From contig CAYZJA010000002.1 of assembly GCA_964479005.1 (NCBI GenBank), positions 161,278 through 225,277 on the forward strand: DNA of 64,000 nucleotides, read 5' to 3'. Below the pieces are notes generated by a model, which saw only the letters and a program-made list of their open reading frames with translations, made no database searches and was not told the origin of the DNA. This stretch comes from an uncultured Candidatus Saccharibacteria bacterium. Its GTDB lineage: Bacteria > Patescibacteriota > Minisyncoccia > UBA6257. The translations under genes and the position numbers were made by a program. Positions 25,554 through 43,995 of the stretch are shown piece after piece; position 1 is the stretch's first letter, and each line of letters opens with the position of its first letter.

Positions 25554-26639
25554 ATGAAAATTTTTATAATTTTAGGTACTCGTCCAGAGATTATTAAAAT
25601 GTCTCCTGTTATAAGGGAATGTATTAAAAAAAGGCTGAATTTTTCGATTTTGCATACAAATCAGCATTACTCGGAAAATTTGGATAAGGTATTTTTTAAA
25701 GAATTAAATTTACCTCGACCAAAATATAATCTGAATGTTGGTTCTGGAACTCATGCTGAGCAAACAGCGAAAATTCTTGTTGGAGTGGAAAAGATTTTAC
25801 TAAAAGAAAGGCCAGATATTGTTTTAGTTGAGGGCGATACTAATACAGTATTAGCAGGCGCTTTAGCAGCTGCTAAACTTCATATTAAAGTAGGGCATAT
25901 TGAAGCGGGATTGAGGTCTTATTATAGGGAAATGCCAGAAGAAATTAATAGAATTTTAGTTGATCATTGTTCTGATTTGCTTTTTACTCCAACAAAAGAA
26001 ACGAAAGACATACTCTTAAATGAAGGGATTCCTCGTAATAAAATATTTGTTACAGGCAATACTATAATTGACGCTGTTTTTCAGAATCTTAAATTAGCTG
26101 AGAAAAAATCAAAAATATTGGAAAAACTTAATTTATCAAAAAGAGGATATTTTTTAATGACTGCCCATCGCGCAGAGAATGTTGATAATGAAAGTAGGCT
26201 AAGAGGTATTTTAAAAGGTGTTGAGATGACTTCTGAAAAATTTTCTTTGCCTGTAATTTATCCCATTCATCCGAGAACAAGAAAGATGATGAAAAAATTT
26301 AAACTTAAGGTTTCAAATAAGGTTAGATTACTCGAACCAATAGGCTATTTGGATTTTTTAAAACTTGAAAATAGTGCTAAACTAATACTTACTGATTCAG
26401 GGGGAATACAAGAAGAAGCTTGCGCAATGCGAGTTCCTTGCGTAACTTTGAGAGATAATACTGAAAGGCCAGAAACAATAGATGTAGGTAGTAATCTGTT
26501 GTCAGGTGCTAATCCTTTAAGAATCTTAAAATCTGTTTCAAAAATGATGAATAAAAACAGAAAATGGAAAAATCCATTTGGTTCTGGCAAAACAGCGGAA
26601 AAAATAATCAAAATTATCCAGAAAAATGAAAAAGCATAA
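25554..26639 (+). CDS. wecB: UDP-N-acetylglucosamine 2-epimerase (non-hydrolysing)
   Basis: MKIFIILGTRPEIIKMSPV…HTNQHYS…GDTNTVLAGALAA…HIEAGLRS…. Confidence 0.9.
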   Translation: MKIFIILGTRPEIIKMSPVIRECIKKRLNFSILHTNQHYSENLDKVFFKELNLPRPKYNLNVGSGTHAEQTAKILVGVEKILLKERPDIVLVEGDTNTVLAGALAAAKLHIKVGHIEAGLRSYYREMPEEINRILVDHCSDLLFTPTKETKDILLNEGIPRNKIFVTGNTIIDAVFQNLKLAEKKSKILEKLNLSKRGYFLMTAHRAENVDNESRLRGILKGVEMTSEKFSLPVIYPIHPRTRKMMKKFKLKVSNKVRLLEPIGYLDFLKLENSAKLILTDSGGIQEEACAMRVPCVTLRDNTERPETIDVGSNLLSGANPLRILKSVSKMMNKNRKWKNPFGSGKTAEKIIKIIQKNEKA

Positions 26640-26790
26640 GGCAATATGTGTAATAGGCCTTGGTTATATTGGTTTGCCAACTGGCTGTTGTTTAGCTAAA
26701 GCTGGTTATGAAGTAATCGGCTTTTATTTAAATGAAGAGAAAATTAAGACTCTAAAATCGAAATTAAAAATTAACCAAGATGGATCTTAA
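26626..26790 (+). pseudogene. N-terminal remnant (54 codons) of a UDP-ManNAc/UDP-sugar dehydrogenase (wecC-like), truncated where the flippase gene begins
   Basis: MKKHKAICVIGLGYIGLPTGCCLAKAGYEVIGFYLNEEKIKTLKSKLKINQDGS*, the dinucleotide-binding N-terminus of WecC/Ugd. Overlaps the wecB stop and the wzx start. Confidence 0.65.
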
Positions 26791-28261
26791 AGATACAATC
26801 AAAAATATTGTTTTAAACCCAAGCGCTTTTTTTCTTAAAAACTCAGGAACTAAGCAGACTATTGCTAAAAACACTTTTTGGTTGGCAATAGCGGAAGGTA
26901 TATCCAAGTTTTTAAAATTAATTTTAATTATTTATATTGCCCGAATTTTAGGGGCTACTGAATACGGAAAATTCACTTTTGCTTTAGCTTTTGTTTCTTT
27001 ATTTGCCATTTTTTCTGATTTTGGTGTTTCTTCAATCACTACTCGCGAACTTGCCCGGGAAAAAGAGAAAGAAAAAGAATTTCCCAATATTCTTTCTTTA
27101 AAACTCGTTTTGGGTATAGGAGCTTTATTTTTAATTTGTCTTGGTTCTTTTTTTATTACCACTGACCCCTTGATTCGCGCGATAATCTGGATTTTAGGAA
27201 TTTATATTATAGTAAGCAGTTTCTCGGGGATTATTTATGCTTTTCTAAGGGCTTGTCAGCAAATGGAATACGAGGCCTGGACTAAAATTCTACAAGCGAT
27301 GGTTGTAACCGGGGCTGGTTTTTTTGTTCTTTTTAATTTTCCCTCGGTTCAAAGTTTAAGTTTAGCTTATTTGTTTGCCGTCTCAATTGCTTTGATTGCT
27401 ATATTGACTTTTTTTCACTTCAAGATTTATCAACTGAAATTAAGTTTTAATAAAAATATATGGCGAAATGTTTTATTAATGTCTTGGCCTCTGGCTTTAG
27501 CAGGGATATTCGGAACGATTTATAGCCAAACTGATTCGATAATGATGGGTTATTTTGGCCAAATTACCCAAGTTGGTTGGTATAATGCCGCTTATAAAAT
27601 TATCGGAGCAACTTTGATTCCAGTAGGTCTTATCTCCATAAGTTTTTTTCCACTATTTAGTAAATTATTCAAAGAATCAAAAGAAAAACTTCAGAAATCT
27701 TGGGATTATTATATGCAGTTGATGATTTTTTTATCCGTGCCTTTAATAGTAGGAGGTATAGTTTTAGCCCCAAAAATTATTGATTTTGTTTACAATTCAA
27801 GTTATTTTCCATCAATTTTAGCCTTTCAAATTTTACTAATAATGGCAGCACTTTCTTATATTTGCAATCCTTTTGGCCAGGCATTAATTGTTTCAAATCA
27901 GCAAAAAAGACTTTTTTGGATAACTTTATCAGGAGCAATCGTCAATGTTGGGCTAAACTTAATTCTAATTCCAAAATACAGCCTTTATGGAGCAGCTTTC
28001 ACCACAGTTGTTACTTTGTTTTTAATTCTCTTTTTGCTTTACAAATTCACGTCAAAATTTACTCCAATCAAACCATTTAATTTAAAATTTCTTTTTAGTT
28101 TTCTTGGCGCTACTTTTTCTAGTATTCTAATGTATCTTGTAATTTCTCAACCGAATGTTTATAATTTAAATATCTTTCTTTCCATCCTTATAGGAAGTTT
28201 AATCTACTTTTTGTGTTTTTTTCTTCTTAGAAAAATCACAAATTTGCTTAAATTTTTATAA
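26780..28261 (+). CDS. wzx: Wzx-type oligosaccharide flippase (MOP superfamily polysaccharide biosynthesis protein)
   Basis: 493 aa with about 12-14 TM helices. Typical Wzx N-terminal region (…KNTFWLAIAEGISK…ILGATEYGKF…). Confidence 0.75.
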   Translation: MDLKDTIKNIVLNPSAFFLKNSGTKQTIAKNTFWLAIAEGISKFLKLILIIYIARILGATEYGKFTFALAFVSLFAIFSDFGVSSITTRELAREKEKEKEFPNILSLKLVLGIGALFLICLGSFFITTDPLIRAIIWILGIYIIVSSFSGIIYAFLRACQQMEYEAWTKILQAMVVTGAGFFVLFNFPSVQSLSLAYLFAVSIALIAILTFFHFKIYQLKLSFNKNIWRNVLLMSWPLALAGIFGTIYSQTDSIMMGYFGQITQVGWYNAAYKIIGATLIPVGLISISFFPLFSKLFKESKEKLQKSWDYYMQLMIFLSVPLIVGGIVLAPKIIDFVYNSSYFPSILAFQILLIMAALSYICNPFGQALIVSNQQKRLFWITLSGAIVNVGLNLILIPKYSLYGAAFTTVVTLFLILFLLYKFTSKFTPIKPFNLKFLFSFLGATFSSILMYLVISQPNVYNLNIFLSILIGSLIYFLCFFLLRKITNLLKFL

Positions 28262-28326
28262 CATATGAAAAATTTTATATTCAATCAATTTATGGGATAC
28301 CATATAATTATTAATAAAAAAGTAAA

Positions 28327-29064
28327 ATGAAAGGCATAGTTTTAGCAGGTGGCACGGGTTCAAGGTTAAAACCTTTAACAAATGTTACAAACAAGCATCT
28401 TTTACCTGTTGGTAAGTACCCAATGATTTTTTATCCGATTTATCAATTGAAACAATCAGGTATTACGGAAATTCTTATTGTAACTAGTAGAGGACATATG
28501 GGAGACGTTATTGAACTTCTTGGAAGTGGGTATGAATTTGGTGTTCAGTTTACTTTTAAAGTTCAAGATCAAGCAGGAGGAATTGCTCAGGCGCTAGGTT
28601 TAGCAGAGCATTTTGTTGACGGGGATCGTTGCGTTGTTATTCTTGGAGATAATATTTTTGAAAATGATATTACTCCTTTTGTTGAATCATTTGAAAAACA
28701 AGAAAAAGGAGCAAAAATACTTCTAAAAGAAGTTTCAGATCCCCAGAGATTTGGTGTAGCTGAGCTTAGAGATAGAAAAATTATTTTGATTGAAGAAAAA
28801 CCAAAACGACCAAAAAGCAATTTTGCCGTTACTGGTATTTATATGTATGACTCTAAAGTATTTGATATTATTAAAACAATAAAACCTTCGGAAAGAGAGG
28901 AACTTGAAATAACGGATGTAAATAATAATTATATTCAACAAGGCACGTTAACTTATGATATTTTAAAAGGTTGGTGGACTGATGCAGGGACTTCCGAATC
29001 TTTATTTCGAGCAAATGAATTTTGTAAAGATATAATCTTGAATTTTAAAAATGGAAAAGTTTAA
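28327..29064 (+). CDS. rfbA: Glucose-1-phosphate thymidylyltransferase (short form)
   Basis: MKGIVLAGGTGSRLKPLT…KHLLPV…ILGDNIF…. Confidence 0.85.
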   Translation: MKGIVLAGGTGSRLKPLTNVTNKHLLPVGKYPMIFYPIYQLKQSGITEILIVTSRGHMGDVIELLGSGYEFGVQFTFKVQDQAGGIAQALGLAEHFVDGDRCVVILGDNIFENDITPFVESFEKQEKGAKILLKEVSDPQRFGVAELRDRKIILIEEKPKRPKSNFAVTGIYMYDSKVFDIIKTIKPSEREELEITDVNNNYIQQGTLTYDILKGWWTDAGTSESLFRANEFCKDIILNFKNGKV

Positions 29065-29623
29065 AGTAATTAAAACTCCAATTAAAGATCTTGTAATAAT
29101 AGAAACGAAAATATTCAAAGATGATAGGGGATTTTTTATAGAAAGTTATAATTCAAAAGATTTTACTGATATTGGAGTTAATGGTCACTTTGTGCAAGAT
29201 AATCATTCGATGTCAAAAAAAGGAGTTTTGAGAGGGTTACATTTTCAGTTTAAACATTCTCAAGGGAAGCTTGTTCGGGTAATTTCAGGAAAGGTATTTG
29301 ATGTTGCAGTTGATTTAAGGTTAAACTCGTCAACTTTTGGGAAATGGTATGGAGTGGAACTTTCTGGTAATAATGGACTTCAATTTTATATACCTTCTGA
29401 CTTTGCTCACGGTTTTCTTACCCTTCAAGAAAATACACATTTCTTTTATAAATGTACTGATTTTTACTGTCCTGATGATGAATTGGGAATTATATGGGAT
29501 GATAAAGATATAGGTATCCAGTGGCCTTTATCTCAAGTTGAGAAGATTATAATTTCCAAGAAAGACAGTCAGTTACCCCCTTTTAGTGAAGTGAGGAGGA
29601 TATTAGAAAAAGAAAATTCTTGA
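29051..29623 (+). CDS. rfbC: dTDP-4-dehydrorhamnose 3,5-epimerase
   Basis: Cupin fold with RGFFIESYN…RGLHFQ…QGKLVRV…HGF. Confidence 0.9.
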   Translation: MEKFKVIKTPIKDLVIIETKIFKDDRGFFIESYNSKDFTDIGVNGHFVQDNHSMSKKGVLRGLHFQFKHSQGKLVRVISGKVFDVAVDLRLNSSTFGKWYGVELSGNNGLQFYIPSDFAHGFLTLQENTHFFYKCTDFYCPDDELGIIWDDKDIGIQWPLSQVEKIIISKKDSQLPPFSEVRRILEKENS

Positions 29624-30489
29624 AGAAAATTATGAAAGTTTTAATACTTGGTGCAAATGGTCAATTGGGGAGTGAATTTAAGACTTTTTTGAAAGATAAA
29701 GCAGAAGTTTTTGCTTTTAATCATAATGAGCTTGATATCCTTGATTTTAAAGGACTTATCAATAAATTCTTTGAATTATCTCCCGATGTTATCATAAATT
29801 GTGCAGCTTATACTAAAGTTGACCAAGCAGAGGAAGAAGAAAATCTTGCTTATCAAGTAAATGCTGTAGGGGCAAAAAATATTTCCTTTGCTTCTTTTAA
29901 AATCAAGGCAAAAGTTGTTTATTTTAGCACTGATTATGTTTTTGATGGCACTCAAAATTCACCCTATAATGAATTTGACAAGCCCAACCCATTATCTATT
30001 TATGGTAGGTCAAAACTTTTTGGAGAAGAGTTTACAAAACAGTTTAATCCGAACCACTTAATTTTAAGAATTTCCTGGCTTTATGGAATAAATGGTTCAA
30101 ACTTTGTAAAGAGTATTATAAGACTTGCAAAAGAAAAAGGTGAATTAAAAGTTGTGAATGATCAATTTGGGACACCTACCTATACGCTTGATGTAGCAAA
30201 GCAAACTTGGAAACTTATTCAAGATGATAATGTTGGTTTGTATCATTCTTCAAATACTGAGCAAACGACTTGGTTTGAATTTGCAAAAAAGATTGTTGAG
30301 CAACTTAACCTTGATGCAAAAGTCTTTCCGATAAAGACTGATAAGTTTCCAGTATTAGCAAAAAGACCAAGCTTTTCTGTACTGGAGGACTATTTACTTA
30401 AAATTGAAAATAAAAATATAATGCGTTCTTGGGAAGAAGCGTTTAACGATTTCGTAAACAAATATAAAAAGAAACTTATAAATGAATAA
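29620..30489 (+). CDS. rfbD: dTDP-4-dehydrorhamnose reductase
   Basis: MKVLILGANGQLG…CAAYTKVDQAE…YSTDYVFDG…. Confidence 0.9.
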   Translation: MKKIMKVLILGANGQLGSEFKTFLKDKAEVFAFNHNELDILDFKGLINKFFELSPDVIINCAAYTKVDQAEEEENLAYQVNAVGAKNISFASFKIKAKVVYFSTDYVFDGTQNSPYNEFDKPNPLSIYGRSKLFGEEFTKQFNPNHLILRISWLYGINGSNFVKSIIRLAKEKGELKVVNDQFGTPTYTLDVAKQTWKLIQDDNVGLYHSSNTEQTTWFEFAKKIVEQLNLDAKVFPIKTDKFPVLAKRPSFSVLEDYLLKIENKNIMRSWEEAFNDFVNKYKKKLINE

Positions 30490-31501
30490 AACAATTTTAA
30501 TAACAGGTGGAGCAGGTTTTATTGGCTCAAACTTCATCCATTATTTTGTAAAAGAATATCCTGATTACAGAATCGTAAACCTTGATAAGTTGACTTATGC
30601 AGGAAACCTTGAAAATCTAAAAGAAGTTGATGATAATCCGAATTACCATTTTGTAAAAGGGGATATTGTAAACAGGGAACTTGTTGAGTATATATTTGAA
30701 AAGTTTAATCCTTGTTATGTAGTGAATTTTGCTGCAGAATCACATGTTGATAGAAGCATTGAAGGACCAGAGATATTTATAAAATCAAATGTTTATGGCG
30801 CACAAATTTTGCTTGATGTTGCAAAGGAGTTTTGGTTAAAAAACAAAATGTTTGGAGAAACAAGATTTCTTCAAATAAGCACCGACGAAATTTATGGCTC
30901 TTTGCCTTTGGAAAGCACCGCGAAGTTTACTGAGGAATTATCTCTTAAACCAAACAGTCCTTACTCTGCATCAAAGGCCGCAGCCGATTTATTAGTGAAA
31001 TCCTATCATTCAACATATAATATGCCCATATTAATTACTCGTTCCTCTAATAATTTTGGCCCAAGGCAATATCCAGAAAAACTTATTCCTTTAATGATTA
31101 CCAATGCTTTACAAGGAAAACCTTTGCCAGTTTATGGAGATGGTTTGAACGTGAGAGATTGGATATATGTTGAAGATAACTGCGGAGGTATTGATTTAGT
31201 GCTTCATAAAGGAAAAATTGGAGAAATTTATAATATTGGAGGCGGTAATGAAAGGAAAAACATTGACCTTGTAAACTTGATTTGCGAGATGCTTGCCGAA
31301 GTTACAGGAAAACCTGTTGAAGAATATAAAAAATTGATAATTTTCGTGAAAGATAGACCCGGACATGACAGAAGGTATGCATTGAGTATTGAAAAAATGA
31401 AAAGAGAACTGGGATGGAGCCCAACTACAGATTTCAAGAAAGGAATGGAAGAAACCGTTAAGTGGTTTATTGATAAATTTTCAATTGAAAGTAATAATTA
31501 A
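30482..31501 (+). CDS. rfbB: dTDP-glucose 4,6-dehydratase
   Basis: [14 protein letters not shown]…TDEIYGS…YSASKAAAD…[18 protein letters not shown]…. Confidence 0.9.
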   Translation: [339 protein letters not shown]

Positions 31502-31521: not shown

Positions 31522-32535
31522 ATGATTTCAGTAGTCGTTGTTTATAACAATCAACGAACTTTAAACGAGATTTTATTAAAGAGCTTAAAAAATCAGACAG
31601 TTAAATATGAACTTATTGCTCTTGATAATACTAAAGGACAGTTTAAATCAGCGGCTGAAGCATTAAATTTTGGTGGGGAAAAAGCAACTGGAAAATATAT
31701 AATGTTTGTCCATCAGGACGTAGAGTTAGGTTCTGATTCATGGTTAGAAAAAGTTGAAAAGCTCTTGGATAATATACCTGATCTTGGAATTGCTGGTGTA
31801 GCGGGAATGAGTGAAAAAGGAAAAAGTAACAAGGAAAGGGGAAGGGGGTATATTAGTGATTCTGGCGAAATATGGCAATGGAGCAACTCTGTACAAAAGC
31901 CAGAAGAAGTCCAAACTTTAGATGAGTGTCTTCTAATAGTGCCAAAGGCTGTATTTGATAATATAAAATTTGATGAAAAAATATTTGATAATTGGCACTG
32001 TTATGGTGCCGATTATTCTTTATGCGTTAGAGAAAAAGGATTAAAAGCCTATGTAATCCCAGCTTTTATTTATCATAGGTCTTTAAGAGTAAATATAAAT
32101 GGGTTATTAAAATATCAAAAAATGTTATATAAAAAGTATCAAAAAAATTATAAACACATTTTTTTGACAACTGGTGAAATTTCTTGGGTAAAACTTATGT
32201 TGCGAACCATAGGAGCATTTTTACACCCTTTTTATAAGAAATTTTTTCCGACTTGGATAGAGAAACTAAAAAGAAAGCTTTCCGATTGCAAAACGGTTTT
32301 AGATTTAGGATGTGGTTACAATTCTCCAATTCAATATTGTAAAGTATCTTTTTCAGTTGGAGTTGAATTATTTGAACCTTATTTGCAAGAAAGCAAAAAA
32401 AGGGGCATTCATAACCAATATATAAAAGCAGACATTAGAAAAGTTGAATTCGGATCGAAATCTTTTGATGCTGTTCTATGTTTGGAAATTCTTGAACATT
32501 TACCAAATGATAATTTTATATTTATAAAAAAATGA
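31522..32535 (+). CDS. Two-domain protein: N-terminal GT-A (family 2-like) glycosyltransferase fused to a C-terminal class I SAM methyltransferase domain
   Basis: N-terminus VVVVYNN…LIALDNT…FVHQDVEL (DxD-like). C-terminus VLDLGCGYNSPI…AVLCLEILEHLPND (MTase motifs I and post-II). Confidence 0.55.
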   Translation: MISVVVVYNNQRTLNEILLKSLKNQTVKYELIALDNTKGQFKSAAEALNFGGEKATGKYIMFVHQDVELGSDSWLEKVEKLLDNIPDLGIAGVAGMSEKGKSNKERGRGYISDSGEIWQWSNSVQKPEEVQTLDECLLIVPKAVFDNIKFDEKIFDNWHCYGADYSLCVREKGLKAYVIPAFIYHRSLRVNINGLLKYQKMLYKKYQKNYKHIFLTTGEISWVKLMLRTIGAFLHPFYKKFFPTWIEKLKRKLSDCKTVLDLGCGYNSPIQYCKVSFSVGVELFEPYLQESKKRGIHNQYIKADIRKVEFGSKSFDAVLCLEILEHLPNDNFIFIKK

Positions 32536-33674
32536 AAATTTTATTCGTATCGCATTCCTCTAATTTATACGGAGCTGAGAGAGTTTTATTAGATCTAGTA
32601 ATAGGGTTGAGGGGTAAAAAGATAGAATCAATGGTAATACTACCATCTTTTGGTCCTTTATGTGAAAAATTAAAAAAAGAACAAATAAAATACAAAATCA
32701 TTCCTTTTAAAGGATGGGCATCAGGATCATCATCATTTTTTAAAAGAATTTTAAGGATTATCTTTAATATTTTTGCAGTACCTCGTTTTTATTTACTTAT
32801 TCGTAAAGAAAAGCCAGATCTTATTGTTACAAGCTCTGCCGTTACCCCTCCCATAGGAGCAATAGTTGCTTACATTTTTCACATACCTCATTTTTGGTAT
32901 ATCCATGAGCTTGTTGAAAAGAAGCAAGGCCTTAGCTATAATTTAGGTATTAATTTTTCAACTAAGTTAATTAATAAATTTTCTAAGTTAGTTATTGTTA
33001 ATTCCATTGCGGTAAAAAATAAATATAAAAATTATATTCCAGAAGGTAAGTTAAAGTTAATTTATTGCGGAATTGAATTAAAAGAAAAAGAGAGAGGTGA
33101 AATTGGAAACATTATTTTGAACCATTACGAAGATTACTTTCAACTTTGTACTGTTGCTTACATCAGCTCAGGCAAGGGCCAAATGGATGCGGTACGAACC
33201 ATCAACTTATTGGTGAAAGAAGGATATAAAGTTGTTTTGTTCATAGTTGGTGGTGGCGACTCAGACTATATTGCTGAAATAAAACAATTTATCAATATTC
33301 ACCACTTAGAAAATAATATATTTTTAAGCGGTTTTTTGGAAAATCCTAAAAAAATTTATGAAATAAGTGATGTTTCATTGATGTGCTCTCGGATGGAAGC
33401 ATTTGGGAGAGTGACGGTTGAAGCTATGTTGCACAAAAAACCGATTATAGGAGCCCGAAGTGGTGGTACCCTTGAATTAATCAAGGAAGGTTTTAATGGT
33501 TTTTTCTATGAACCAGGTAATTTTACAGAACTCGCAGAAAAGATAAAATATTTAATAAATAATAAAACAGAAAGACTGAAGATGGGTGAAAATGCTTATT
33601 GGTGGGCGAAGGAAAAGTTTTCTCTACAAAAGTTTATAGAAGAGTTTTATAAAATATGCCAAAAGTTTCTATAA
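32532..33674 (+). CDS. Glycosyltransferase family 4 (GT-B, group 1)
   Basis: C-terminal EAFGRVTVEAMLHKKPIIGARSGGTLELIKEGFNGF (E-x7-E region). Confidence 0.8.
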   Translation: MKILFVSHSSNLYGAERVLLDLVIGLRGKKIESMVILPSFGPLCEKLKKEQIKYKIIPFKGWASGSSSFFKRILRIIFNIFAVPRFYLLIRKEKPDLIVTSSAVTPPIGAIVAYIFHIPHFWYIHELVEKKQGLSYNLGINFSTKLINKFSKLVIVNSIAVKNKYKNYIPEGKLKLIYCGIELKEKERGEIGNIILNHYEDYFQLCTVAYISSGKGQMDAVRTINLLVKEGYKVVLFIVGGGDSDYIAEIKQFINIHHLENNIFLSGFLENPKKIYEISDVSLMCSRMEAFGRVTVEAMLHKKPIIGARSGGTLELIKEGFNGFFYEPGNFTELAEKIKYLINNKTERLKMGENAYWWAKEKFSLQKFIEEFYKICQKFL

Positions 33675-33763
33675 TAATTCTTAATTGGAATAGATATAAA
33701 AATAAAGAAATTATGAAAGACTCAAATCAAAACTGGGCTGGTACAGGTATACTATATATATGA
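33656..33763 (+). pseudogene. N-terminal stub (35 codons) of a GT2 glycosyltransferase (MPKVSIIILNWNR…), first of two repeated stubs
   Basis: Shares about 45 bp (CCAAAAGTTTCTATAATAATTCTTAATTGGAAT.GAT) with the second stub at 34641. Overlaps the GT4 stop. Confidence 0.55.
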
Positions 33764-34640: not shown

Positions 34641-34715
34641 ATGACTCCAAAAGTTTCTATAATAATTCTTAATTGGAATGGATGGAAAGATGATAAATTT
34701 TTTTTTGAAATATAA
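34641..34715 (+). pseudogene. Second GT2 N-terminal stub (MTPKVSIIILNWNGWKDDKFFFEI*), ending in a T9 homopolymer just before the intact GT2 gene
   Basis: Near-identical 45-bp repeat of 33658-33703. Followed by the poly-T tract and the next start codon. Confidence 0.55.
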
Positions 34716-36717: not shown

Positions 36718-38337
36718 ATGAAAATATTAACTGGTAAAAAGTGGCAAAATGGGTTTTTGGATTATTATCGTATAAGGAAAGAATACCGTATCCAGGTTTT
36801 AGCTTGGAAAAATTTGGAAAAAATAGAAGATGCATATTATATTAGGCCAAAAAGCTTAAAAATGGCTCTGAGATATTTACCAATAGTTGGCCCTTATGGA
36901 TTATTTACAAAAGCTTGGTCTCGATGGCGCGAACAAAGACGTAATGACAAATATGTTTCATGTGGCATAGGAAAAATTACCGAAATAGGGAATAATTCAG
37001 AATTTAAAGTTAATGATGTGGTGGCTTTTATTGCACCACTTCATCCTCCTTTAGTGGAACGCTTGACTCTGCCTAAAGAGTTTATTTTTAATATTGACAA
37101 AACAATTTTGCCTCAACTACCGCCTAAAGAAATTCTACTTTATCCCTTAGGGCAAAAAAATAAATCAAATCAATGGTGGGAAGAAGTTATTAGTTGGAGC
37201 ATTTATTCGGGAATAGATGTTTCAGAAGAATTAAGAAAAAAATTAGAGGAAGGTTTGATTAAGGAAATTCAAAATACTAAGTGGAATAATTGCGAAAAGT
37301 TTGATATTGAAACTCCAACAAAAATAAGAGAAATAAAGGGCGAGGTGAAAAAATTGGATCCCCAGAGAAAGACCGGAGTTCTTTTTGGTTTTGGCAATTA
37401 TGCCAAAACGAATATTGTTACTTTCATGAAATCTTTTGTTAATATTACTACTATCCATGAGATTGACCCCACAGAAATTTGGGAAAGAAGCGCCCAAAAA
37501 TGGGATTCAAGCCCTTTTCCTCGGAATAATGAAAAATACGATGTTTATTTTATAGCTAGCTATAATCACACCCATACCCCAATAGCGCTTTATGCCTTAA
37601 AACAGGGAGCATATGCGGTTGTTGAAAAACCAGTAGCAATGGATTATAAGGAATTAGAAGAAATTGAAAAAACATTAAGAGAGGTTGGGCCTAAGATTTT
37701 TATTGGTTTTCATAAAAGATATTCAGTTTTTAATGAATGGGCTTTTGAAGATTTAAATGCAAAACATGGTGAGCCAATTTCTTATCATTCTATTGTTTAT
37801 GAAATAAGCCAGCCTAAATATTTTTGGTATACATGGCCTGTTTCACGAAGTACTTTTCTTGCCAACGGTTGTCATCAGATTGATCATTTCTTGTGCCTTA
37901 ATAATTTTAGCAAACCTAAAGATTTTGATATTAAATTATTACAAGATAATGCAATTGAAGTATGGATAGAATTAGAAAATGGGGCAGTTTTTACCACAAC
38001 CTTTAGTGAAAAAGGTAGTACTAGAGTAGGACCAAGAGATCATGTCGAATTAAAAGTTCCTGGTAGAAATGTAAGAATAACTGATAATATTTTGTATCTT
38101 TCAGAAGATGAATCAAGGATTATTAGAAAAAAGAGAATGTTTAAGACAAACAGTTATCGAAATATGTATTTGAAAATTGGTGCTAAGATAGCTAATAACG
38201 AAGATGGGGATTCAATTGAATCAATTTTAGTTTCTACAAAATTAATGTTGGATTTAGAAGAAAGATTACAGAAAATGAAAGGTTGGGGTGATAGATATAT
38301 AAAGGCTAAAGAAAAATTTTGGGGATACTTTAAATAA
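36718..38337 (+). CDS. Gfo/Idh/MocA-family NAD(P)-dependent sugar oxidoreductase with an uncharacterised N-terminal extension of about 215 aa
   Basis: Rossmann core …GVLFGFGNYAKTN…YDVYFIASYNHTHTPIALYALKQGAYAVVEKPVA… begins near residue 218. The N-terminal part has no recognisable motif. Confidence 0.6.
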   Translation: MKILTGKKWQNGFLDYYRIRKEYRIQVLAWKNLEKIEDAYYIRPKSLKMALRYLPIVGPYGLFTKAWSRWREQRRNDKYVSCGIGKITEIGNNSEFKVNDVVAFIAPLHPPLVERLTLPKEFIFNIDKTILPQLPPKEILLYPLGQKNKSNQWWEEVISWSIYSGIDVSEELRKKLEEGLIKEIQNTKWNNCEKFDIETPTKIREIKGEVKKLDPQRKTGVLFGFGNYAKTNIVTFMKSFVNITTIHEIDPTEIWERSAQKWDSSPFPRNNEKYDVYFIASYNHTHTPIALYALKQGAYAVVEKPVAMDYKELEEIEKTLREVGPKIFIGFHKRYSVFNEWAFEDLNAKHGEPISYHSIVYEISQPKYFWYTWPVSRSTFLANGCHQIDHFLCLNNFSKPKDFDIKLLQDNAIEVWIELENGAVFTTTFSEKGSTRVGPRDHVELKVPGRNVRITDNILYLSEDESRIIRKKRMFKTNSYRNMYLKIGAKIANNEDGDSIESILVSTKLMLDLEERLQKMKGWGDRYIKAKEKFWGYFK

Positions 38338-38354
38338 CTGAATTTATCTTCTTT

Positions 38355-39569
38355 ATGAAGAAAAATATATTAATTATTTCAGATTCTTACCCCCCAGAAA
38401 TTCGTTCAGCAGCACAATTGATGAAAGATTTGGCCGAAGGTCTACGCGGCAAGGGATATAATATTTGGGTTGCTACTTCTTATCCAAAATACAACTTAGT
38501 GGATTCAGGAGATAGTGTTTGGCCTAAAATTGCAGATGAGGATGGAGTAAAGGTGTTACGTATTAAAACCCTATCCCACCACAAGGTAAATTTTATTATT
38601 AGAGGGATAGCTCAGCTTTTGATGCCCTATATTTTTTTTCGCGAGATTAAAAAAAATATTAAAGAAAAAATTGATATTACGATTGTGCACAGTCCGCCTC
38701 TACCATTAACAATTGTTGCTTCTAAAATAAAGAGATTTTATAAGGCAAAATATATCCTTAATCTTCATGATATATTCCCGCAAAATGCGATTGATCTGGG
38801 AATTTTAAGGAATAAATTTCTTATTAAGTTTTTTGAATGGATGGAAAGTAAGGCATATCAAAACCCTGATTTAATTGTTGTCCCTTCAAATGCGCATAAA
38901 AGATTTATTGAGGAAAAGAGAAATGTTCCAAAACAAAAAGTACACGTTATATATCACTGGATAGATATTGGTCCATTTTTGCAATTAAAAAAAACAGGCA
39001 AATTTAGAAAATTATATGATATAGAAGACAAATTTGTATTTTTATTTGGAGGGGTGATTGGACCGTCTCAAGGACTAGATTTATTAATTAGAATAGCAAA
39101 TAGAGTAAAAGAAAATAAAGATATAGTTTTTCTCTTAGTTGGTGATGGTTCGGCTAAAGATAGCTTAGTTAAGATGGCAGAAAAATTGAAGCTTAAAAAT
39201 ATTATTTTCAAGTCATTTGTTTCTTCAGAAGAATATCCAGAATTGGTTAAAGATTGTAATATTGGCGTAGCTTGTCTTACAGATAAAAATACAACGCCAG
39301 CAGTTCCAGCAAAGATTTTAGGATATATGGCGGCTAACATTCCAGTTGTTGGTTTTTTACATAAGGAAAGTGATGGTTTTGAAGTAATTTGGGAAGCCAA
39401 ATGTGGTTATGCCGTAAATGTTGGCGATCTTGATAAAGCAGTAGAAATCGTCAGAAAAATTTACAACGAGAAAGATAAATTAAAAGAATTAGGCAATAAT
39501 GGCTTTCAATATGCCTTAAATAATTTTACAATCGATGTTTGTTTAAATAAATTAGAAAAGCTATTTTAG
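38355..39569 (+). CDS. Glycosyltransferase family 4 (WbuB-like)
   Basis: MKKNILIISDSYPPE… N-terminus and a GT-B C-terminal domain (…FLFGGVIGPSQGLDLLI…VGDGS…). Confidence 0.75.
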   Translation: MKKNILIISDSYPPEIRSAAQLMKDLAEGLRGKGYNIWVATSYPKYNLVDSGDSVWPKIADEDGVKVLRIKTLSHHKVNFIIRGIAQLLMPYIFFREIKKNIKEKIDITIVHSPPLPLTIVASKIKRFYKAKYILNLHDIFPQNAIDLGILRNKFLIKFFEWMESKAYQNPDLIVVPSNAHKRFIEEKRNVPKQKVHVIYHWIDIGPFLQLKKTGKFRKLYDIEDKFVFLFGGVIGPSQGLDLLIRIANRVKENKDIVFLLVGDGSAKDSLVKMAEKLKLKNIIFKSFVSSEEYPELVKDCNIGVACLTDKNTTPAVPAKILGYMAANIPVVGFLHKESDGFEVIWEAKCGYAVNVGDLDKAVEIVRKIYNEKDKLKELGNNGFQYALNNFTIDVCLNKLEKLF

Positions 39570-39676
39570 AGTTTTATGATGTTTTTGTACCTAGAAAAGC
39601 TGAAATTAAAAGTATTTTTGATAGAGTAAATGGATTTTTGAGAAAAAATATCAAAAATAATGTATAATATAATTAT

Positions 39677-40228
39677 ATGAAAACTATTTATTATTTATTT
39701 CAAAGTTTTCGAATAAGGGATTGGATTGGAAATCTTTTTGTTTTTATTCCTTTAATTTTTGCTGGATTAATATTTGATTGTGGGTTTTTTCTCAAGGCAG
39801 CAGAGGCATTCTTCTTATTTAGTTTATCTGCTAGCGCAGTTTCTATTTTGAATGATGTTTTGGATATAGAAAAAGATAAAAAACATCCAGAAAAATCTAA
39901 AAGGCCTATTGCTTCAGGTAAATTAAATTCCGGCATTGCTTTATTTGTTAGCTTGATTTTAATAGTTTTAAGCCTATGGCTTGCCATACAGATTAATTTA
40001 AAGTTTACACTTTTATTTTCTTTATTTATTATCTTAGATATTGTTTATAGTTTATGGCTAGCAAAAGTGCGTTTTGTTAATTCTATTTTCGTGGCATTAA
40101 CTTATGCATTGAGAGTTTATGCAGGTGGGGCCATTATTAATCTATCTTTAAACATTTGGTATTTTATTTTTAGTTTTCTATTTGGTTTATTTCATTTCTT
40201 TTATAAAAAGAAAAAAGAGCATCAATAA
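39677..40228 (+). CDS. UbiA-superfamily prenyl/phosphoribosyl-transferase, N-terminal half only (first Asp-rich motif present, second absent); possibly a truncated gene
   Basis: …ILNDVLDIEKDKKHPEKSKRPIASGKL… is the UbiA NDxxDxxxD…RP(I/L)xSG motif. The protein stops at 183 aa, before the expected second DxxxD motif, and pgpA starts at its stop codon. Confidence 0.5.
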   Translation: MKTIYYLFQSFRIRDWIGNLFVFIPLIFAGLIFDCGFFLKAAEAFFLFSLSASAVSILNDVLDIEKDKKHPEKSKRPIASGKLNSGIALFVSLILIVLSLWLAIQINLKFTLLFSLFIILDIVYSLWLAKVRFVNSIFVALTYALRVYAGGAIINLSLNIWYFIFSFLFGLFHFFYKKKKEHQ

Positions 40229-40698
40229 TGGATTTTAAAAGTAATTACAAAAACTTTTTTGTAAAATTTTTTGCAACATGTTTTGGTCTAGGTTATAGCC
40301 CTATCTTTCCTGGAGCGTTAGGAGTGGCTTTTGGGGCTCTAATCGCGTATTTAGTTCATCCATTACCTTTCTTTATTAAAATTCTAATAACATTATCTTT
40401 AATTGTTTTTGCTGTTCCTTTAAGCACTAAAGCTGAAAAACTTTTTCAGAAAAAAGACTGTAAAAAGATTATTATTGATGAGGTTGTTGGTGTATTAATA
40501 GCTACAATTTGGTTTACAAATCTATCTATAATTATGTTTATTCCCATTTTGTTTATTTATGGCTTATTTGATGCCATAAAAATATATCCCGCTAATGTGA
40601 GTGAAAATCTTTATGGCGGATGGGGGATTGTAATTGATGACATTATCGCAGGTCTTTATACAGCATTAACAGTTTTTATGTTATTAAAATTTGTTTAA
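40228..40698 (+). CDS. pgpA: Phosphatidylglycerophosphatase A family protein
   Basis: GLGYSPIFPGALGVAFGA, DEVVGVLIA and GGWGIVIDDIIAGL match PgpA's conserved GSGLSPxxPGTxGS, DEFxG and GGxGIMxDDxxAG blocks. Confidence 0.75.
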   Translation: MDFKSNYKNFFVKFFATCFGLGYSPIFPGALGVAFGALIAYLVHPLPFFIKILITLSLIVFAVPLSTKAEKLFQKKDCKKIIIDEVVGVLIATIWFTNLSIIMFIPILFIYGLFDAIKIYPANVSENLYGGWGIVIDDIIAGLYTALTVFMLLKFV

Positions 40699-40701
40699 AT
40701 T

Positions 40702-42666
40702 ATGATAACAATTAATTTAGGAAGAATTAAAAAAGCTTTTTTTCATCCAAAAGCGGCTTTTTTGTATTTTAGAGAATATTTAGAAGGCAAGTTTTTAAGA
40801 TTTATATCTAAGAGAAAAATTGATTTAAGAAAAGAATTATCCAAGAGGGTTTATAAACATTTAAGAAAGCATTTTATTAGAAGAAAAGAACCAAGATTTT
40901 TTAATGCAAATTTTTTAGAAGAGTTAGCTAATCAGAATTTTATTATAGATAATGCTGATAGAATTTGTAATCAGGAATTTACTTTTTTAGGTATAAATCC
41001 TAAAATCTTAAAAAACATTAAGTGGAATCAAGACATTAAATCAGGCCATATTTGGCCTAATTTGTTTTATTTAGATTTAAGAAAAAAATTTATTCATTCT
41101 TACAACAGGGGGTGGGAGATAAAAATGGTATGGGAATTATCCCGTTTCCAATATGTAATTCCTTTGGCTTTAGCTTTTTATAAGACTGGAGATGAAAAAT
41201 ATTTAAGAAAATGGCAGGAATTGATTTTAGATTGGATAAAAAAAAACCCTGTTTATTTTGGTCCTAATTGGATTAATGCTATGGAAGTTGCAATAAGAGC
41301 TTGTAACTGGATTTTCAGTTGGGAAATAATAATAGCAAGAAACAAAAAACAAAAAACAAGAAACAAACTGGGGAAGGAATTTATAGAGAAGTTTTTAGGT
41401 TCTTTGGTTGAACATGGAAAGTTTATTTATAGAAATTTGGAATATGCTCCAATTAGGTCAAATCATTATTTGTCTGATATTGTCGGTTTGGTTTATTTAG
41501 GAATAATGTTTCCAGAATTTAAAGAGTCAAAGAAATGGTTGAAGAAAGGTTTGAGGGCTTTAGAAGAAGAAATGAAGTTCCAGGTTTATAATGATGGCGT
41601 GGATTATGAACTTTCAATTGCTTATCATCGTTATGTAACGGAGCTCTTTTTATGGGCAGGGAGGCTATGTAAGGAGAATCCTTCGGCATGCTCAGGATTT
41701 AATTTATCTTTAGAATTTTGGGAAAAATTAGAAAAAATGATGGAATTTTCCAAGCACTATGCAAAGCCTAATGGCTTGGCGCCGCAAATAGGGGACGCAG
41801 ATGACGGGAGGTTGCATATTGTTTGGGAAGATTTTTATAATTGGGAAAAAAGAAATCATTTTGCTTTGTTTGAGCTTTATGAGAGGGTATTTAAATCTAA
41901 TGAAGCCCTTCGACAAGCTCAGGGTATAAATAGTAAATCTTTTTCTAAATCAGGATTTTATATTATGAGGGATAAAGATTTTTATTTAATTACAGGCAGA
42001 AATAAATGCTGTTATGGAAAAGGGGGAAGTCATGTACATAATGATATTTTAAGTTTTGAATTATCAATGCTTGGAAATGATTTTATTATTGATCCAGGTA
42101 CTTATGTTTATACTTCCGATTTTAAAGCAAGGAATAAATTTCGTAAAACAAGAGCTCATAATACAGTTATGATAGATAATGAGGAACAGAATCCTATATC
42201 TGAAGATCCGTTTTATATAGAACAAACAGGGGAATTAACAGTAAACCAATGGGAAACAAAAGGAGAAGGGATTATCTTAGAGGCAGAACATAATTGTTAT
42301 GAAAGATTAAGATGTTCTGTTATTCATAATCGTACATTCTCTTTTAATAAAAAAGAGAGGGCTTTGTATATCAAAGATAAATTTAAAGGTAGAGGTGATC
42401 ATGAATTAGAATGGAATTTTCATCTTTCCCCTAAAATCAAGATTTGGGTTAAAGAAAACAAAGCAGAGTGCAAAGAAGCTATTCTTATTGGGAATAACGG
42501 TTCTTTAATATTTTCTGTTCCTAAGATTTTAAATTGTGTTATTATAGAAGATAGAGTTTCTTTGTCTTATGGAAATAGAATTCCAGCAAAAACTATTCGT
42601 TTTACAGGATTTCTAAAGCAGGGCTTTCCAAGAGAATATAAGTTTAGTTTTAGGCCTTTAAAATAA
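40702..42666 (+). CDS. Heparinase II/III-like protein (alginate-lyase-like N-terminal domain plus Hepar_II_III C-terminal domain)
   Basis: …APIRSNHYLSDIVGLVYLG… and …GGSHVHNDILSFELSMLGNDFIIDPGTYVYT…. Confidence 0.65.
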   Translation: MITINLGRIKKAFFHPKAAFLYFREYLEGKFLRFISKRKIDLRKELSKRVYKHLRKHFIRRKEPRFFNANFLEELANQNFIIDNADRICNQEFTFLGINPKILKNIKWNQDIKSGHIWPNLFYLDLRKKFIHSYNRGWEIKMVWELSRFQYVIPLALAFYKTGDEKYLRKWQELILDWIKKNPVYFGPNWINAMEVAIRACNWIFSWEIIIARNKKQKTRNKLGKEFIEKFLGSLVEHGKFIYRNLEYAPIRSNHYLSDIVGLVYLGIMFPEFKESKKWLKKGLRALEEEMKFQVYNDGVDYELSIAYHRYVTELFLWAGRLCKENPSACSGFNLSLEFWEKLEKMMEFSKHYAKPNGLAPQIGDADDGRLHIVWEDFYNWEKRNHFALFELYERVFKSNEALRQAQGINSKSFSKSGFYIMRDKDFYLITGRNKCCYGKGGSHVHNDILSFELSMLGNDFIIDPGTYVYTSDFKARNKFRKTRAHNTVMIDNEEQNPISEDPFYIEQTGELTVNQWETKGEGIILEAEHNCYERLRCSVIHNRTFSFNKKERALYIKDKFKGRGDHELEWNFHLSPKIKIWVKENKAECKEAILIGNNGSLIFSVPKILNCVIIEDRVSLSYGNRIPAKTIRFTGFLKQGFPREYKFSFRPLK

Positions 42667-42684
42667 TGGAAACAATTTTAGAAA

Positions 42685-43995
42685 ATGTTGCAAAATAAAA
42701 TAAAATCTACATTTTTAATAATAGGGGATTTGCTCGTTTTCTATTTATCTCTGTATCTGGCAATATTATTAAGGCATAGTTTGCCCTTTAATAAAGAGAT
42801 ATTTTTCCAGTGTTTTTTGCCTTTTTCTTTTATTTTCTTAATTTGGATTATTTTATTCTCTATAAGCCATCTTTATGAATTAAGGCACGCAGCTAACAGG
42901 AAAAAGTTTTTTGAAATGGTTTTTAAGCTGTTTAGCTTTGCGGCTATTATTTCCGTTATCTATTTTTATTTATTTGTTCCTTCTTTTGCTCCAAAAAAGG
43001 TTTTGTTTTTAACTCTTACTTTTTCTTTTATCCTTTTTCTAATCTGGAGAATTATTTTCAACCGTATTATAAAAATTCCCAGAATTAATGTTTTAATCAT
43101 TTCTAAAATAAAAGAAGCCAGTGAAATAAATATGTTTTTGAAAAAACATCCTCAGATTGGATATGATGTAATTAAGATTTTGCCTCCAGAAGAAATAAAC
43201 CAAACAGCAAAAGAATTAAAAGAAAGTGATATTGATTTGTTTGTGCTTGATTCTAATTTATTTGATTCTTTGCTTTCTTATGTCCCTGACGCCAGACTCA
43301 AATTAAAAGTCGTTGATATTATTGATTTTTACGAATCTGTTTTACAAAAAACTCCGGTTGATCTTCTTCCATCATCATGGTTTTTGGAAAATTATTACAG
43401 TAAGAATTGGGAGTTATACAAGACATTAAAAAGGGTCTCTGATATTTTCGGTGGCATTATATTATTTATTCTTTCTTTACCGCTTTGGCCGATTATTGCG
43501 TTGTTAGTTAAATTGAATTCAAATGGGCCTGTTTTGCACAAATCTGTACGCATTGGGTCAAAGGACAAAGAGTTTCATATCTATAAATTTAGAACTATGT
43601 TTGATAAAGCAGATAAGATTGGGCCTTCCTGGACATTAGAAAACGATCCTCGTGTAACTCGGATTGGAAAGATTCTTAGATTTTTGCATTTAGACGAGAT
43701 TCCTCAAGTTTTAAATATTATCAAAGGCGATGTTTCTTTTGTTGGTCCTAGGCCAGAGGAAAAGAAATTAGTCGGTTTATTCAAGAAGAAGATTCCATTT
43801 TACCAGTTTCGTCTGTTAATTAAACCAGGAGTGATTGGTTGGGCGCAGATTAATTATCCACACAGCGCTTCAGTAGAGGATGCGCAGGAGAAATTGAAAT
43901 ACGATTTTTATTATTTGAAAAATAGGAATATATTTTTTGATGTTATTATTGCTTTAAAGGCATGGCGGATACCTTTTGAGATTCCTACGCATTAA
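42685..43995 (+). CDS. Polyprenyl-phosphate hexose-1-phosphate transferase (WbaP/CpsE-type 'bacterial sugar transferase'), the priming enzyme
   Basis: N-terminal TM helices. C-terminal …GPVLHKSVRIGSKDKEFHIYKFRTM…RVTRIGKILRFLHLDEIPQVLNIIKGDVSFVGPRP…. Confidence 0.85.
   Translation: MLQNKIKSTFLIIGDLLVFYLSLYLAILLRHSLPFNKEIFFQCFLPFSFIFLIWIILFSISHLYELRHAANRKKFFEMVFKLFSFAAIISVIYFYLFVPSFAPKKVLFLTLTFSFILFLIWRIIFNRIIKIPRINVLIISKIKEASEINMFLKKHPQIGYDVIKILPPEEINQTAKELKESDIDLFVLDSNLFDSLLSYVPDARLKLKVVDIIDFYESVLQKTPVDLLPSSWFLENYYSKNWELYKTLKRVSDIFGGIILFILSLPLWPIIALLVKLNSNGPVLHKSVRIGSKDKEFHIYKFRTMFDKADKIGPSWTLENDPRVTRIGKILRFLHLDEIPQVLNIIKGDVSFVGPRPEEKKLVGLFKKKIPFYQFRLLIKPGVIGWAQINYPHSASVEDAQEKLKYDFYYLKNRNIFFDVIIALKAWRIPFEIPTH

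Follow-up and report, generated by a model that had tools for sequence, protein, structure and literature searches.

A strain-variable Patescibacteria glycan locus with a Wzx flippase but no polymerase gene, edged by a truncated UbiA-like gene and a PgpA-family gene

Introduction

What does a bacterial surface-glycan locus make when it encodes an initiating enzyme, several glycosyltransferases (GTs) and a Wzx-type flippase, but no Wzy polymerase? The question is raised by a 64,000-nt stretch of DNA (the window; GC content about 30%), which derives from a Patescibacteria bacterium of Paceibacterota/Minisyncoccota-like affiliation, Paceibacterota corresponding to the phylum Minisyncoccota. An initial annotation of the locus under study, positions 25554-43995 on the plus strand, had described a methylated, rhamnose-based glycan locus that fits a short oligosaccharide built on a lipid carrier and flipped by Wzx. 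Surface glycans of the candidate phyla radiation (CPR)/Patescibacteria are essentially uncharacterised, and a 2024 preprint on Saccharibacteria pili called their glycosylation processes 'unexplored'.

Here we compare this locus with about 40 related loci. On balance, this strain-variable surface-glycan locus (18.7-44.1 kb) appears to make a methylated, rhamnose-containing lipid-linked oligosaccharide that would be flipped by Wzx and transferred unpolymerised. A pair of small membrane proteins at its conserved edge, a truncated UbiA-like protein and a PgpA-family phosphatase, would supply a pentofuranose donor.

Results

No Wzy-like protein in the window or in the readable parts of related loci

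Nearly every open reading frame (ORF) across the 64 kb was scanned with Pfam profiles, NCBIfam profiles were scored against their curated cutoffs, and all ORFs between 15 and 45 kb of the window were subjected to a hydropathy scan. Pfam scans of the 64-kb window and hydropathy of the 15-45 kb region revealed no Wzy/O-antigen-ligase-like, Wzz/PCP (polysaccharide co-polymerase), ATP-binding cassette (ABC) transporter, LCP or GT-C protein. CpsBCD-type genes were not present either, and an ABC-2 permease/ATPase pair was missing in that no ABC transporter domain occurs in the window. A Wzy_C/PglL/PilO-type oligosaccharyltransferase was likewise not found in the 64 kb, pilus cluster included. The initial statement that Wzy, Wzz and an ABC exporter are lacking thus holds for the entire window. 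The only membrane proteins of the locus are Wzx, the initiating polyprenyl-phosphate glycosylphosphotransferase (PGT) and two proteins that had escaped the initial gene list, a UbiA-like protein (39677-40228; termed UbiA-short) and a PgpA homologue (40228-40698). By hydropathy the latter two have about five predicted transmembrane (TM) segments each; each has a confident family assignment of its own and does not resemble Wzy. As for the intergenic gaps, they measure at most 256 nt and none is large enough to hide a further gene. Checking the topology of the membrane ORFs brought no cryptic polymerase to light in the locus; hydropathy of all locus ORFs, the gap check and the Pfam scans together rule one out.

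Related loci, 12 genomic ones and about 30 metagenomic ones of at least 5 kb (individual loci are designated by L numbers), were compared with the window. Their right side is conserved and reads UbiA-short–PgpA–(heparinase-like)–PGT–murB–hpf–secA–scpA–scpB–dacA–mraY–pilT. The genes left of UbiA-short differ from locus to locus and include other sugar-nucleotide genes, GTs, methyltransferases and an asparagine-synthase-like gene. Individual orthologues share 55-94% identity. The PGT is present in all relatives at 65-94% identity, with a ratio of nonsynonymous to synonymous substitution rates (dN/dS) of 0.04-0.13; the heparinase-like gene is 68-83% identical in closer relatives and absent from a clade at about 60% identity. 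In most relatives a 443-aa flippase (67-86% identity) is encoded directly upstream of UbiA-short. The window differs in this respect, as its 493-aa Wzx lies at the far left of the locus and is merely 24-27% identical to the 443-aa flippase of the relatives. ORFs with many TM segments in the variable regions comprised only Polysacc_synt flippases and PMT_2 GT-C enzymes in L009, L110, L112 and L120. In about 40 related loci, the stretch read upstream of UbiA-short, at most 10 kb long, encoded no Wzy-like protein.

As a rule, the Wzy gene is part of the variable region and changes along with the repeat unit; a lineage-wide absence of Wzy from this region therefore favours an unpolymerised oligosaccharide that is transferred en bloc. 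En-bloc transfer is the most likely fate of the product because Wzy, Wzz and an ABC exporter are missing both here and from the readable variable regions of about 40 relatives. The proposal of a Wzx-dependent locus for a short, lipid-carried oligosaccharide is supported by these relatives, which are alike in this regard and differ in GT content. Its delimitation from a classical O-antigen is trivial, as the prevailing view is that Patescibacteria have neither an outer membrane nor lipopolysaccharide.

UbiA-short and PgpA form a conserved pair

UbiA-short (39677-40228, plus strand) is a 183-aa truncated, putative polyprenyl-phosphate phosphoribosyltransferase resembling decaprenylphosphoryl-5-phosphoribose (DPPR) synthase and comprising TM1-6. 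Its match to NF008977 (E 1e-40) covers profile positions 2-179 of 297. Clustering at 90% identity yielded a family of 46 clusters (180-196 aa, 55-95% identity), which evolves under purifying selection with dN/dS values of 0.07-0.33, comparable to those of murB (0.13-0.25). A fresh pseudogene or frameshift was ruled out by these dN/dS values and by the 46 clusters reaching down to 55% identity. In one locus (L009) UbiA-short coexists with a full-length 291-aa paralogue that adjoins a GT-C gene.

According to the cryo-electron microscopy structure of Rv3806c, the site for phosphoribosyl pyrophosphate (PRPP) is formed by helical bundle 1, only K208 being contributed by bundle 2 (PMC10994848). Residues named for this site are R22, N73, D74, D77, D81, K87, R90, Y138 and Y157 as well as K28, Y70, Q135 and K143 (PMC10994848). 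In the alignment of the short family, the equivalents of R22, N73, D74, D77, D81, K87, Y138 and Y157 are invariant and that of R90 is nearly so. An AlphaFold2 model of UbiA-short (predicted local distance difference test, pLDDT, 85; predicted TM-score, pTM, 0.79) displayed six TM helices and superposed best on Rv3806c (8j8j), with a query TM-score of 0.83 and a root-mean-square deviation of 2.8 Å over 176 columns, 54% of the target. In the Citrobacter enzyme ORF15, the loop-IV mutants R366A and E369A were still active (PMC11127046).

PgpA (40228-40698, plus strand) is a lipid-phosphate phosphatase that matches PF04608 over the full profile length (E 3e-32) and retains the family-invariant Asp residues. 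Its start codon overlaps the UbiA-short stop codon (TAATG), and the two genes overlap or abut in nearly all relatives. PgpA directly follows UbiA-short in every related locus that reaches past UbiA-short. Moreover, in 4 of 104 unrelated loci a full-length UbiA-like gene is followed by a PgpA homologue at a distance of at most 1.5 kb; these are L033 and L049 (both Ignavibacteria), L139 and L142. A GT-C homologue precedes the UbiA gene in L139; in L142 the order is a 517-aa protein with 10 TM segments (no Pfam match), UbiA, a short-chain dehydrogenase/reductase (SDR) and PgpA. GT-C (PMT_2) genes also lie directly upstream of the UbiA-short/PgpA pair in three related loci (L110, L112, L120), and one adjoins the pair in L009.

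Every polyprenyl-phosphoribose synthase known so far depends on a 5'-phosphatase as partner, and these partners belong to diverse structural families. No publication was found that ties PgpA to phosphoribosyl lipids. Phosphatidylglycerophosphate, the known PgpA substrate, and a lipid-phospho-ribose-5-phosphate would share the same layout of lipid, phosphodiester, polyol and phosphomonoester. The pair probably supplies a lipid-linked polyprenyl-phospho-pentofuranose for extracellular decoration. We propose, as a tentative extension, that the truncated UbiA-fold enzyme (TM1-6 with the whole PRPP/Mg site) and PgpA might be the two subunits of a polyprenyl-phospho-ribofuranose synthase of a kind not described before. 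In this case PgpA would replace the HAD- or Rv3807c-type 5'-phosphatase, and perhaps the missing helices too, and a hypervariable, polymerase-free locus would have its fixed edge in this module and the conserved primer enzyme.

Gene content of the locus

The genes listed in the initial annotation (wecB, wzx, rmlACDB, GTs, methyltransferases, the Gfo/Idh/MocA oxidoreductase, the heparinase-like gene and the primer) were all recovered on the plus strand at the positions given there by profile matches, and the 17 main ORFs, all of them intact, run in one direction and are closely spaced, with overlaps or gaps not exceeding 250 nt. WecB (25554-26639), a non-hydrolysing UDP-GlcNAc 2-epimerase forming UDP-N-acetylmannosamine (UDP-ManNAc), reached 441 bits with TIGR00236 (cutoff 210). 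It is followed by the 493-aa MOP-type flippase Wzx (26780-28261; PF01943, E 2e-42; about 13 TM segments), the sole flippase in the window; the MurJ model gave it just 34 bits against a cutoff of 235. The dTDP-L-rhamnose pathway is encoded by rmlA, rmlC, rmlD and rmlB (28327-31501, plus strand), which were assigned with NCBIfam equivalog profiles. RmlC (253 bits, cutoff 156), RmlD (318, cutoff 224) and RmlB (467, cutoff 365) all pass; RmlA (28327-29064) is a short form of 245 aa that scored 248 bits, under the equivalog cutoffs.

Five GT candidates and two methyltransferase domains follow, all on the plus strand. At 31522-32535 a GT2_5 domain (PF13712, E 5e-21) is fused to an S-adenosylmethionine (SAM) methyltransferase domain (PF08241, E 1e-10). 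The latter covers profile positions 1-76 of 95 and looks C-terminally truncated, because the protein stops just past motif II ('LEILEHL'). A GT4 enzyme (32532-33674; PF00534, E 1e-30; PF13439, E 5e-16) precedes a stand-alone SAM methyltransferase (33925-34635; PF08241, E 1.6e-6) and a rhamnosyltransferase-like GT2 (34718-35623; PF00535, E 5e-12), which scored 186 bits with TIGR01556, just below the cutoff of 200.6. As just one rhamnosyltransferase-like GT is present, the glycan is more safely called rhamnose-containing than rhamnose-based. The weakest call is a 343-aa soluble protein (35647-36678), a probable GT of the GT-A type that barely exceeded the cutoff of PF03407 (Nucleotid_trans; 22.2 versus 22 bits). 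It carries a YLDADLY motif (DAD) and has orthologues in L012, L017 and L098; no solved structure matched it. The second GT4 (38355-39569; PF00534, PF13439) is WcaI-like, with 132 bits for NF007640 (cutoff 276). Upstream of it, a 539-aa protein (36718-38337) combines an N-terminal part of about 210 aa with a Gfo/Idh/MocA oxidoreductase, PF01408 matching residues 270-330 only, and gave weak matches to solved Gfo/Idh/MocA enzymes, WbpB among them. Its orthologues in L007, L012 and L017 are 81-93% identical and paired with the next GT4. This oxidoreductase and the WcaI-like GT4 make up a semi-conserved module, 72-93% identical and located directly upstream of UbiA-short in L007/L016, L012/L103 and L017.

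Downstream of PgpA, a heparinase II/III-like protein (40702-42666, plus strand; PF16889, E 7e-40; PF07940, E 2e-39) aligned with heparinase III (5jmd, E 4e-33), including the NH, YH and H motifs. It is probably cytoplasmic, having neither a predicted signal peptide nor a TM segment. A literature search on heparinase-II/III-like genes in biosynthetic clusters and on CPR glycans yielded nothing useful. The last gene encodes the initiating enzyme, a large PGT of the WbaP/WcaJ class (42685-43995, plus strand; TIGR03025, 302 bits, cutoff 295.6; PF02397, E 3.5e-55). A strong intrinsic-terminator-like hairpin with a 12-pair stem, six of the pairs being GC, and a subsequent T-run (44101-44128, plus strand) sits between PGT and murB, so that UbiA-short, PgpA, the heparinase-like gene and PGT close the transcription unit of the glycan genes. 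A promoter scan performed no better than on shuffled sequence. The mraY gene (50611) was ruled out as a second primer of the TagO/WecA type, as its product passes the MraY equivalog cutoff.

Several related loci showed additional features. In L007/L016 (8991-9994) and L015 (1402-2405), an inserted nucleotidyltransferase/HEPN toxin-antitoxin-like gene pair separates the 443-aa flippase gene from UbiA-short; in L014 (9179-9724) only the 181-aa partner of a HEPN-type pair was recovered, and in L101 such a pair lies upstream of UbiA-short, with the flippase not in view. L007 also encodes a 493-aa soluble protein (4578-6059) with a SAM-binding motif and no Pfam match, whose C-terminal half is kinase-like by eye, recalling chain terminators of the WbdD type. 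A 4-kb contig carrying the UbiA-short–PgpA–heparinase-like block (L013, CAYWLA010000117.1) was deposited in a metagenome-assembled genome (MAG) labelled 'Methanosarcinales archaeon'. This label probably results from mis-binning; a physical association with an archaeal host is a possible alternative.

Borders of the locus and recombination scars

The true borders of the locus lie at about 18.7 kb, after mltG, and at 44.1 kb, at the terminator; it thus extends further left than position 25554. The conserved left flank is a full-length MltG/YceG gene (17731-18741, plus strand; PF02618, E 1e-71). A partial second copy of mltG (24709-25532, plus strand) comprises the C-terminal 229 aa, is 83% identical at the amino acid level to residues 116-336 of the full copy and lies 6.8 kb downstream of it; the two copies form the direct DNA repeats D1, D2 and D5 (80-90% identical). 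Just behind the full copy, a 154-aa ORF (18996-19483, plus strand) covers positions 201-331 only of the GDP_Man_Dehyd profile and is a 3' fragment of a second dTDP-glucose 4,6-dehydratase gene. Over residues 204-331 of the intact RmlB, this relic shows 49% amino acid identity; at the nucleotide level the identity is 72% (repeat D3).

The mltG partial copy and the rmlB 3' relic bracket a segment of about 6 kb with three intact genes, all on the plus strand, for a polysaccharide pyruvyl transferase (19596-20744; PF04230, E 1e-36), an SDR-type NAD-dependent epimerase/reductase (21262-22326; PF01370, E 7e-13) and a MenD/acetolactate-synthase-like thiamine-diphosphate enzyme (22357-24099; TPP_enzyme_N, E 3.5e-19; TIGR00173 menD, 167 bits, below the cutoff of 244). 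The combination of thiamine-diphosphate enzyme and reductase in a sugar locus (21262-24099) recalls YerE/YerF-type synthesis of branched-chain sugars. An 87-aa ORF (20829-21092) gave no family match; judged by sequence only, an acetyltransferase fragment is possible. Judging by these repeats, the segment looks as if it had been imported from the glycan locus of another strain. A pyruvylated-ManNAc secondary cell wall polymer of the CsaB/SLH type, considered because wecB and a pyruvyl transferase occur together, was rejected, as the CsaB profile gave 24.7 bits against a cutoff of 213; TagA/WecG and SLH domains were not found in the window.

A second scar surrounds the stand-alone methyltransferase gene (33925-34635), which is flanked by two relic GT2 5' ends (MPKVSIIILNWN…) at 33656-33712 and 34641-34700. 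They contain a 54-nt direct repeat (at 33659 and 34647, 85% identical) encoding 'PKVSIIILNWN', and GT2 repeats on both sides suggest that this methyltransferase gene was inserted by duplication or recombination. The duplicated mltG, the rmlB relic and the GT2 relics are the signature of a serotype-type locus that is swapped between conserved flanks.

Host and surroundings

The genomes closest to the window are MAGs labelled Candidatus Paceibacterota or, generically, Saccharibacteria/Patescibacteria. Exact window proteins occurred in metagenome assemblies only, and the right-hand part (34.7-52 kb, window coordinates) was recovered in identical copies from several sequencing runs; runs that yielded the locus are SRR3085416, SRR3085435, SRR3095939 and SRR3095933. 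The 23S rRNA gene (10296-13864) exceeds the model by about 640 nt, and the insertion holds an intact 163-aa LAGLIDADG endonuclease ORF (12542-13033); Rfam reported no group I intron in it at the gathering threshold. The rRNA genes are unlinked: no 16S gene precedes the 23S-5S pair (5S, 14900-15007), and the 16S gene begins 50 kb downstream (63676-64000). Between murB and hpf, 39-nt tandem repeats encode a 76-aa ORF (45407-45637) composed of little else than Lys/Arg/Val repeats (KKVVRRKVRKVVKRK…). In the identical contig L001 this ORF is annotated as a gene, and relatives hold small ORFs without a family at the same position.

Left of the window, 3 kb more were read via the contig L091. They encode two secreted or anchored proteins of unassigned family; no oligosaccharyltransferase, LCP or Wzy gene was detected in these 3 kb. 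Beyond an Rce1-like gene, L091 carries the gene for a 405-aa secreted protein (10553-11770) with a signal peptide, long Pro/Ser/Thr-rich and poly-Pro linkers and Cys-rich modules. As such sequences are often heavily O-glycosylated, this protein is a candidate acceptor.

Discussion

The gene content described above can be arranged into a pathway. The RmlACDB enzymes would produce dTDP-L-rhamnose and WecB would provide UDP-ManNAc, while the WbaP/WcaJ-class PGT would place a sugar-1-phosphate on undecaprenyl phosphate. The chain would then be extended by up to five cytoplasmic GTs (two GT4 enzymes, the rhamnosyl-type GT2, the GT2_5 fusion and the 343-aa protein) and O-methylated by one or two methyltransferases; the Gfo/Idh/MocA protein and the cytoplasmic heparinase-like protein may modify a sugar. 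The finished lipid-linked oligosaccharide, roughly a hexasaccharide, would be flipped by the single Wzx and passed en bloc, unpolymerised, to an acceptor. Peptidoglycan, a surface protein and a lipid are all conceivable as acceptor, with an LCP enzyme acting in the first case and an O-oligosaccharyltransferase in the second; the gene for the transferase lies outside the window. In a side branch formed by the translationally coupled pair, UbiA-short would join PRPP and polyprenyl phosphate, and PgpA would strip off the 5'-phosphate to give polyprenyl-phospho-ribofuranose or an epimer. This lipid may serve as donor for extracytoplasmic decoration by a GT-C enzyme, whose gene lies beside the pair in some relatives and is absent from the window.

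Several observations weigh against this pathway. UbiA-short lacks TM7-9 as well as K208, and in Rv3806c TM7-9 form the trimer interface, disruption of which abolished activity. Moreover, both ligands of the PRPP 5'-phosphate are replaced in the window subclade (K28→G and Y70→S, residues 18 and 56), which consists of the window and its closest relatives P0002, P0007 and P0012; most other short forms keep Lys and Tyr. The exchange could reflect an altered donor or a relaxed function. No UbiA–PgpA fusion occurred among the top 150 PgpA representatives, in which the single long match was a PgsA–PgpA fusion, and fusion as Rosetta-stone evidence was dropped for this reason. The locus contains no ORF for a small (4-TM) flippase of the SMR/GtrA type that would handle a polyprenyl-phosphate-linked donor, and no uronic-acid-forming dehydrogenase that would make the substrate of the heparinase-like protein. 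The methyltransferase domain of the GT2_5 fusion appears truncated. Finally, relatives were read only as far as 10 kb upstream of UbiA-short, and genes for Wzy, an oligosaccharyltransferase, an LCP enzyme or a GT-C could lie in other parts of the genome.

Some of these points would also fit a position of the pair outside the glycan pathway. PgpA would then be a housekeeping phosphatidylglycerophosphate phosphatase, and UbiA-short an inactive remnant or an unrelated prenyl-lipid enzyme that merely lies near murB. PgpA is a full-length family member that keeps the residues common to the PgsA–PgpA fusion and has no UbiA fusion among the representatives searched, UbiA-short has lost one third of the fold and, in the window subclade, two 5'-phosphate ligands, and the pair sits in the conserved, not the variable, part of the locus. 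However, purifying selection on UbiA-short and its retained Mg/PRPP ligands are difficult to reconcile with a remnant. In almost every relative the UbiA-short stop codon overlaps with, or lies right next to, the start of PgpA, the pair shares the terminator-bounded unit of the PGT, and GT-C genes directly upstream in L110, L112 and L120 as well as PgpA homologues beside full-length UbiA-like genes in Ignavibacteria and other lineages likewise argue for a role in the pathway. We consider a location outside the pathway doubtful, albeit deserving serious attention.

Could the product nevertheless be an ordinary Wzx/Wzy capsule or wall polysaccharide, with Wzy and a chain-length regulator encoded elsewhere in the genome and the polymer then joined to peptidoglycan? 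The portion of the genome seen amounts to 64 kb plus 3 kb to the left, and a polymerase gene may at times be separate from the main cluster, as is rfc of Salmonella group B. In addition, the conserved PGT implies a constant reducing-end sugar, which could let one distal polymerase serve several variants. Such an arrangement would depart from the usual co-variation of Wzy with the repeat unit inside the variable region, where neither the window nor about 40 relatives, as far as readable, contain a Wzy-like ORF; Wzz/PCP and CpsBCD-type genes were not found either. A distant polymerase therefore seems unlikely to us.

The adjacent type IV pilins, initially regarded as obvious candidate acceptors, are not supported as such by the gene arrangement. 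From the PGT gene it is 7.8 kb to the start of the pilus genes and 10 kb to the first pilin gene; the 12-bp-stem terminator and nine housekeeping genes, among them murB, hpf, secA, scpAB, dacA and mraY, lie in between. Because this order is conserved in relatives regardless of their glycan genes, adjacency of locus and pilus genes reflects housekeeping synteny. Furthermore, neither a Wzy_C oligosaccharyltransferase nor a GT-C is encoded in the window or beside the pilus genes. Transfer by a PglL/PilO-type O-oligosaccharyltransferase onto the downstream pilins or an S-layer protein would be in line with known en-bloc O-glycosylation loci, which are also Wzx-dependent and lack Wzy. A Ser/Thr/Gly-rich stretch in the C-terminal disulphide loop of the major pilin, the secreted Pro/Ser/Thr-rich protein just left of the window and arabinosylation of Pseudomonas aeruginosa pilin via a UbiA-family phosphoribose synthase pathway also speak for it, and for Saccharibacteria, which are also a CPR group, O-glycosylation of pilin is so far a prediction only. 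Taken together, transfer by this route is quite improbable. That the locus is a decaying mosaic making no defined glycan any more is highly improbable, since its relics of mltG, rmlB and GT2, the 87-aa ORF without a family and the truncated methyltransferase domain contrast with 17 intact, co-directional and tightly packed main ORFs, an identical right-hand part (34.7-52 kb) from several sequencing runs and orthologues with 55-94% identity in relatives.

An unpolymerised, Wzx-flipped oligosaccharide thus remains the reading we prefer, and the locus can be placed among known systems. It resembles Wzx/Wzy O-antigen and capsule loci (enterobacterial rfb, pneumococcal cps) in its initiating PGT, Wzx, rml and wecB genes and several Leloir GTs, and also in hypervariable content between conserved flanks and in its recombination scars. 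In contrast to these loci it has no Wzy, Wzz/PCP, export or ligation genes, its host belongs to the Patescibacteria, and its flank holds the PGT and the truncated UbiA/PgpA pair. With the en-bloc O-glycosylation loci of Neisseria (pgl), Burkholderia (ogc) and Bacteroidetes it would share a lipid-linked oligosaccharide built by PGT and GTs, a Wzx-like flip and the absence of a polymerase. Here, however, no oligosaccharyltransferase is encoded in the window and no acceptor was identified, and the locus is larger and strain-variable. The slg S-layer clusters of Geobacillus and Paenibacillus with their methyl-rhamnose caps likewise contain rml genes, rhamnosyltransferases and a GT-fused methyltransferase in a host without an outer membrane. 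They use an ABC transporter and a WsaB-type oligosaccharyltransferase to produce a polymeric rhamnan, whereas the present locus has neither transporter nor oligosaccharyltransferase.

The UbiA-short/PgpA pair is reminiscent of three-component, extracytoplasmic pentofuranosylation systems such as Citrobacter youngae ORF12-15 (PMC11127046), mycobacterial Rv3806c/Rv3807c and Pseudomonas aeruginosa pilin arabinosylation. They, too, combine a UbiA-family transferase carrying the NDxxDxxxD Mg/PRPP motif with a phosphatase, and a directly adjacent GT-C gene in some related loci is a further likeness. In contrast, the putative transferase described here corresponds to the N-terminal 60% or so of the fold and the phosphatase is of the PgpA family, not of the HAD or Rv3807c type. 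Moreover, the window lacks a small SMR/'MATE'-type flippase and a GT-C, and the pair is a conserved edge, not a serotype-converting accessory. What is new is therefore a hypervariable, Wzx-dependent and Wzy-less locus in a little-studied phylum, edged by a previously undescribed truncated phosphoribosyltransferase/PgpA module.

If UbiA-short and PgpA are functional, a further phosphatase family would join the polyprenyl-phosphoribose pathways, and a minimal catalytic core would be defined for an enzyme class to which Rv3806c belongs, a protein described as an attractive target for tuberculosis drugs (PMC10994848). If the polymerase is indeed lacking throughout the lineage, the cells would display short, defined oligosaccharides and not capsules. 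As epibiotic bacteria depend on cell-cell contact, a strain-variable glycan locus driven by recombination could plausibly influence which hosts they use, how susceptible they are to phages or how they evade immunity. With a two-subunit synthase at its edge, the locus could diversify the surface of these ultra-small Patescibacteria, which may matter for recognition by hosts or phages.

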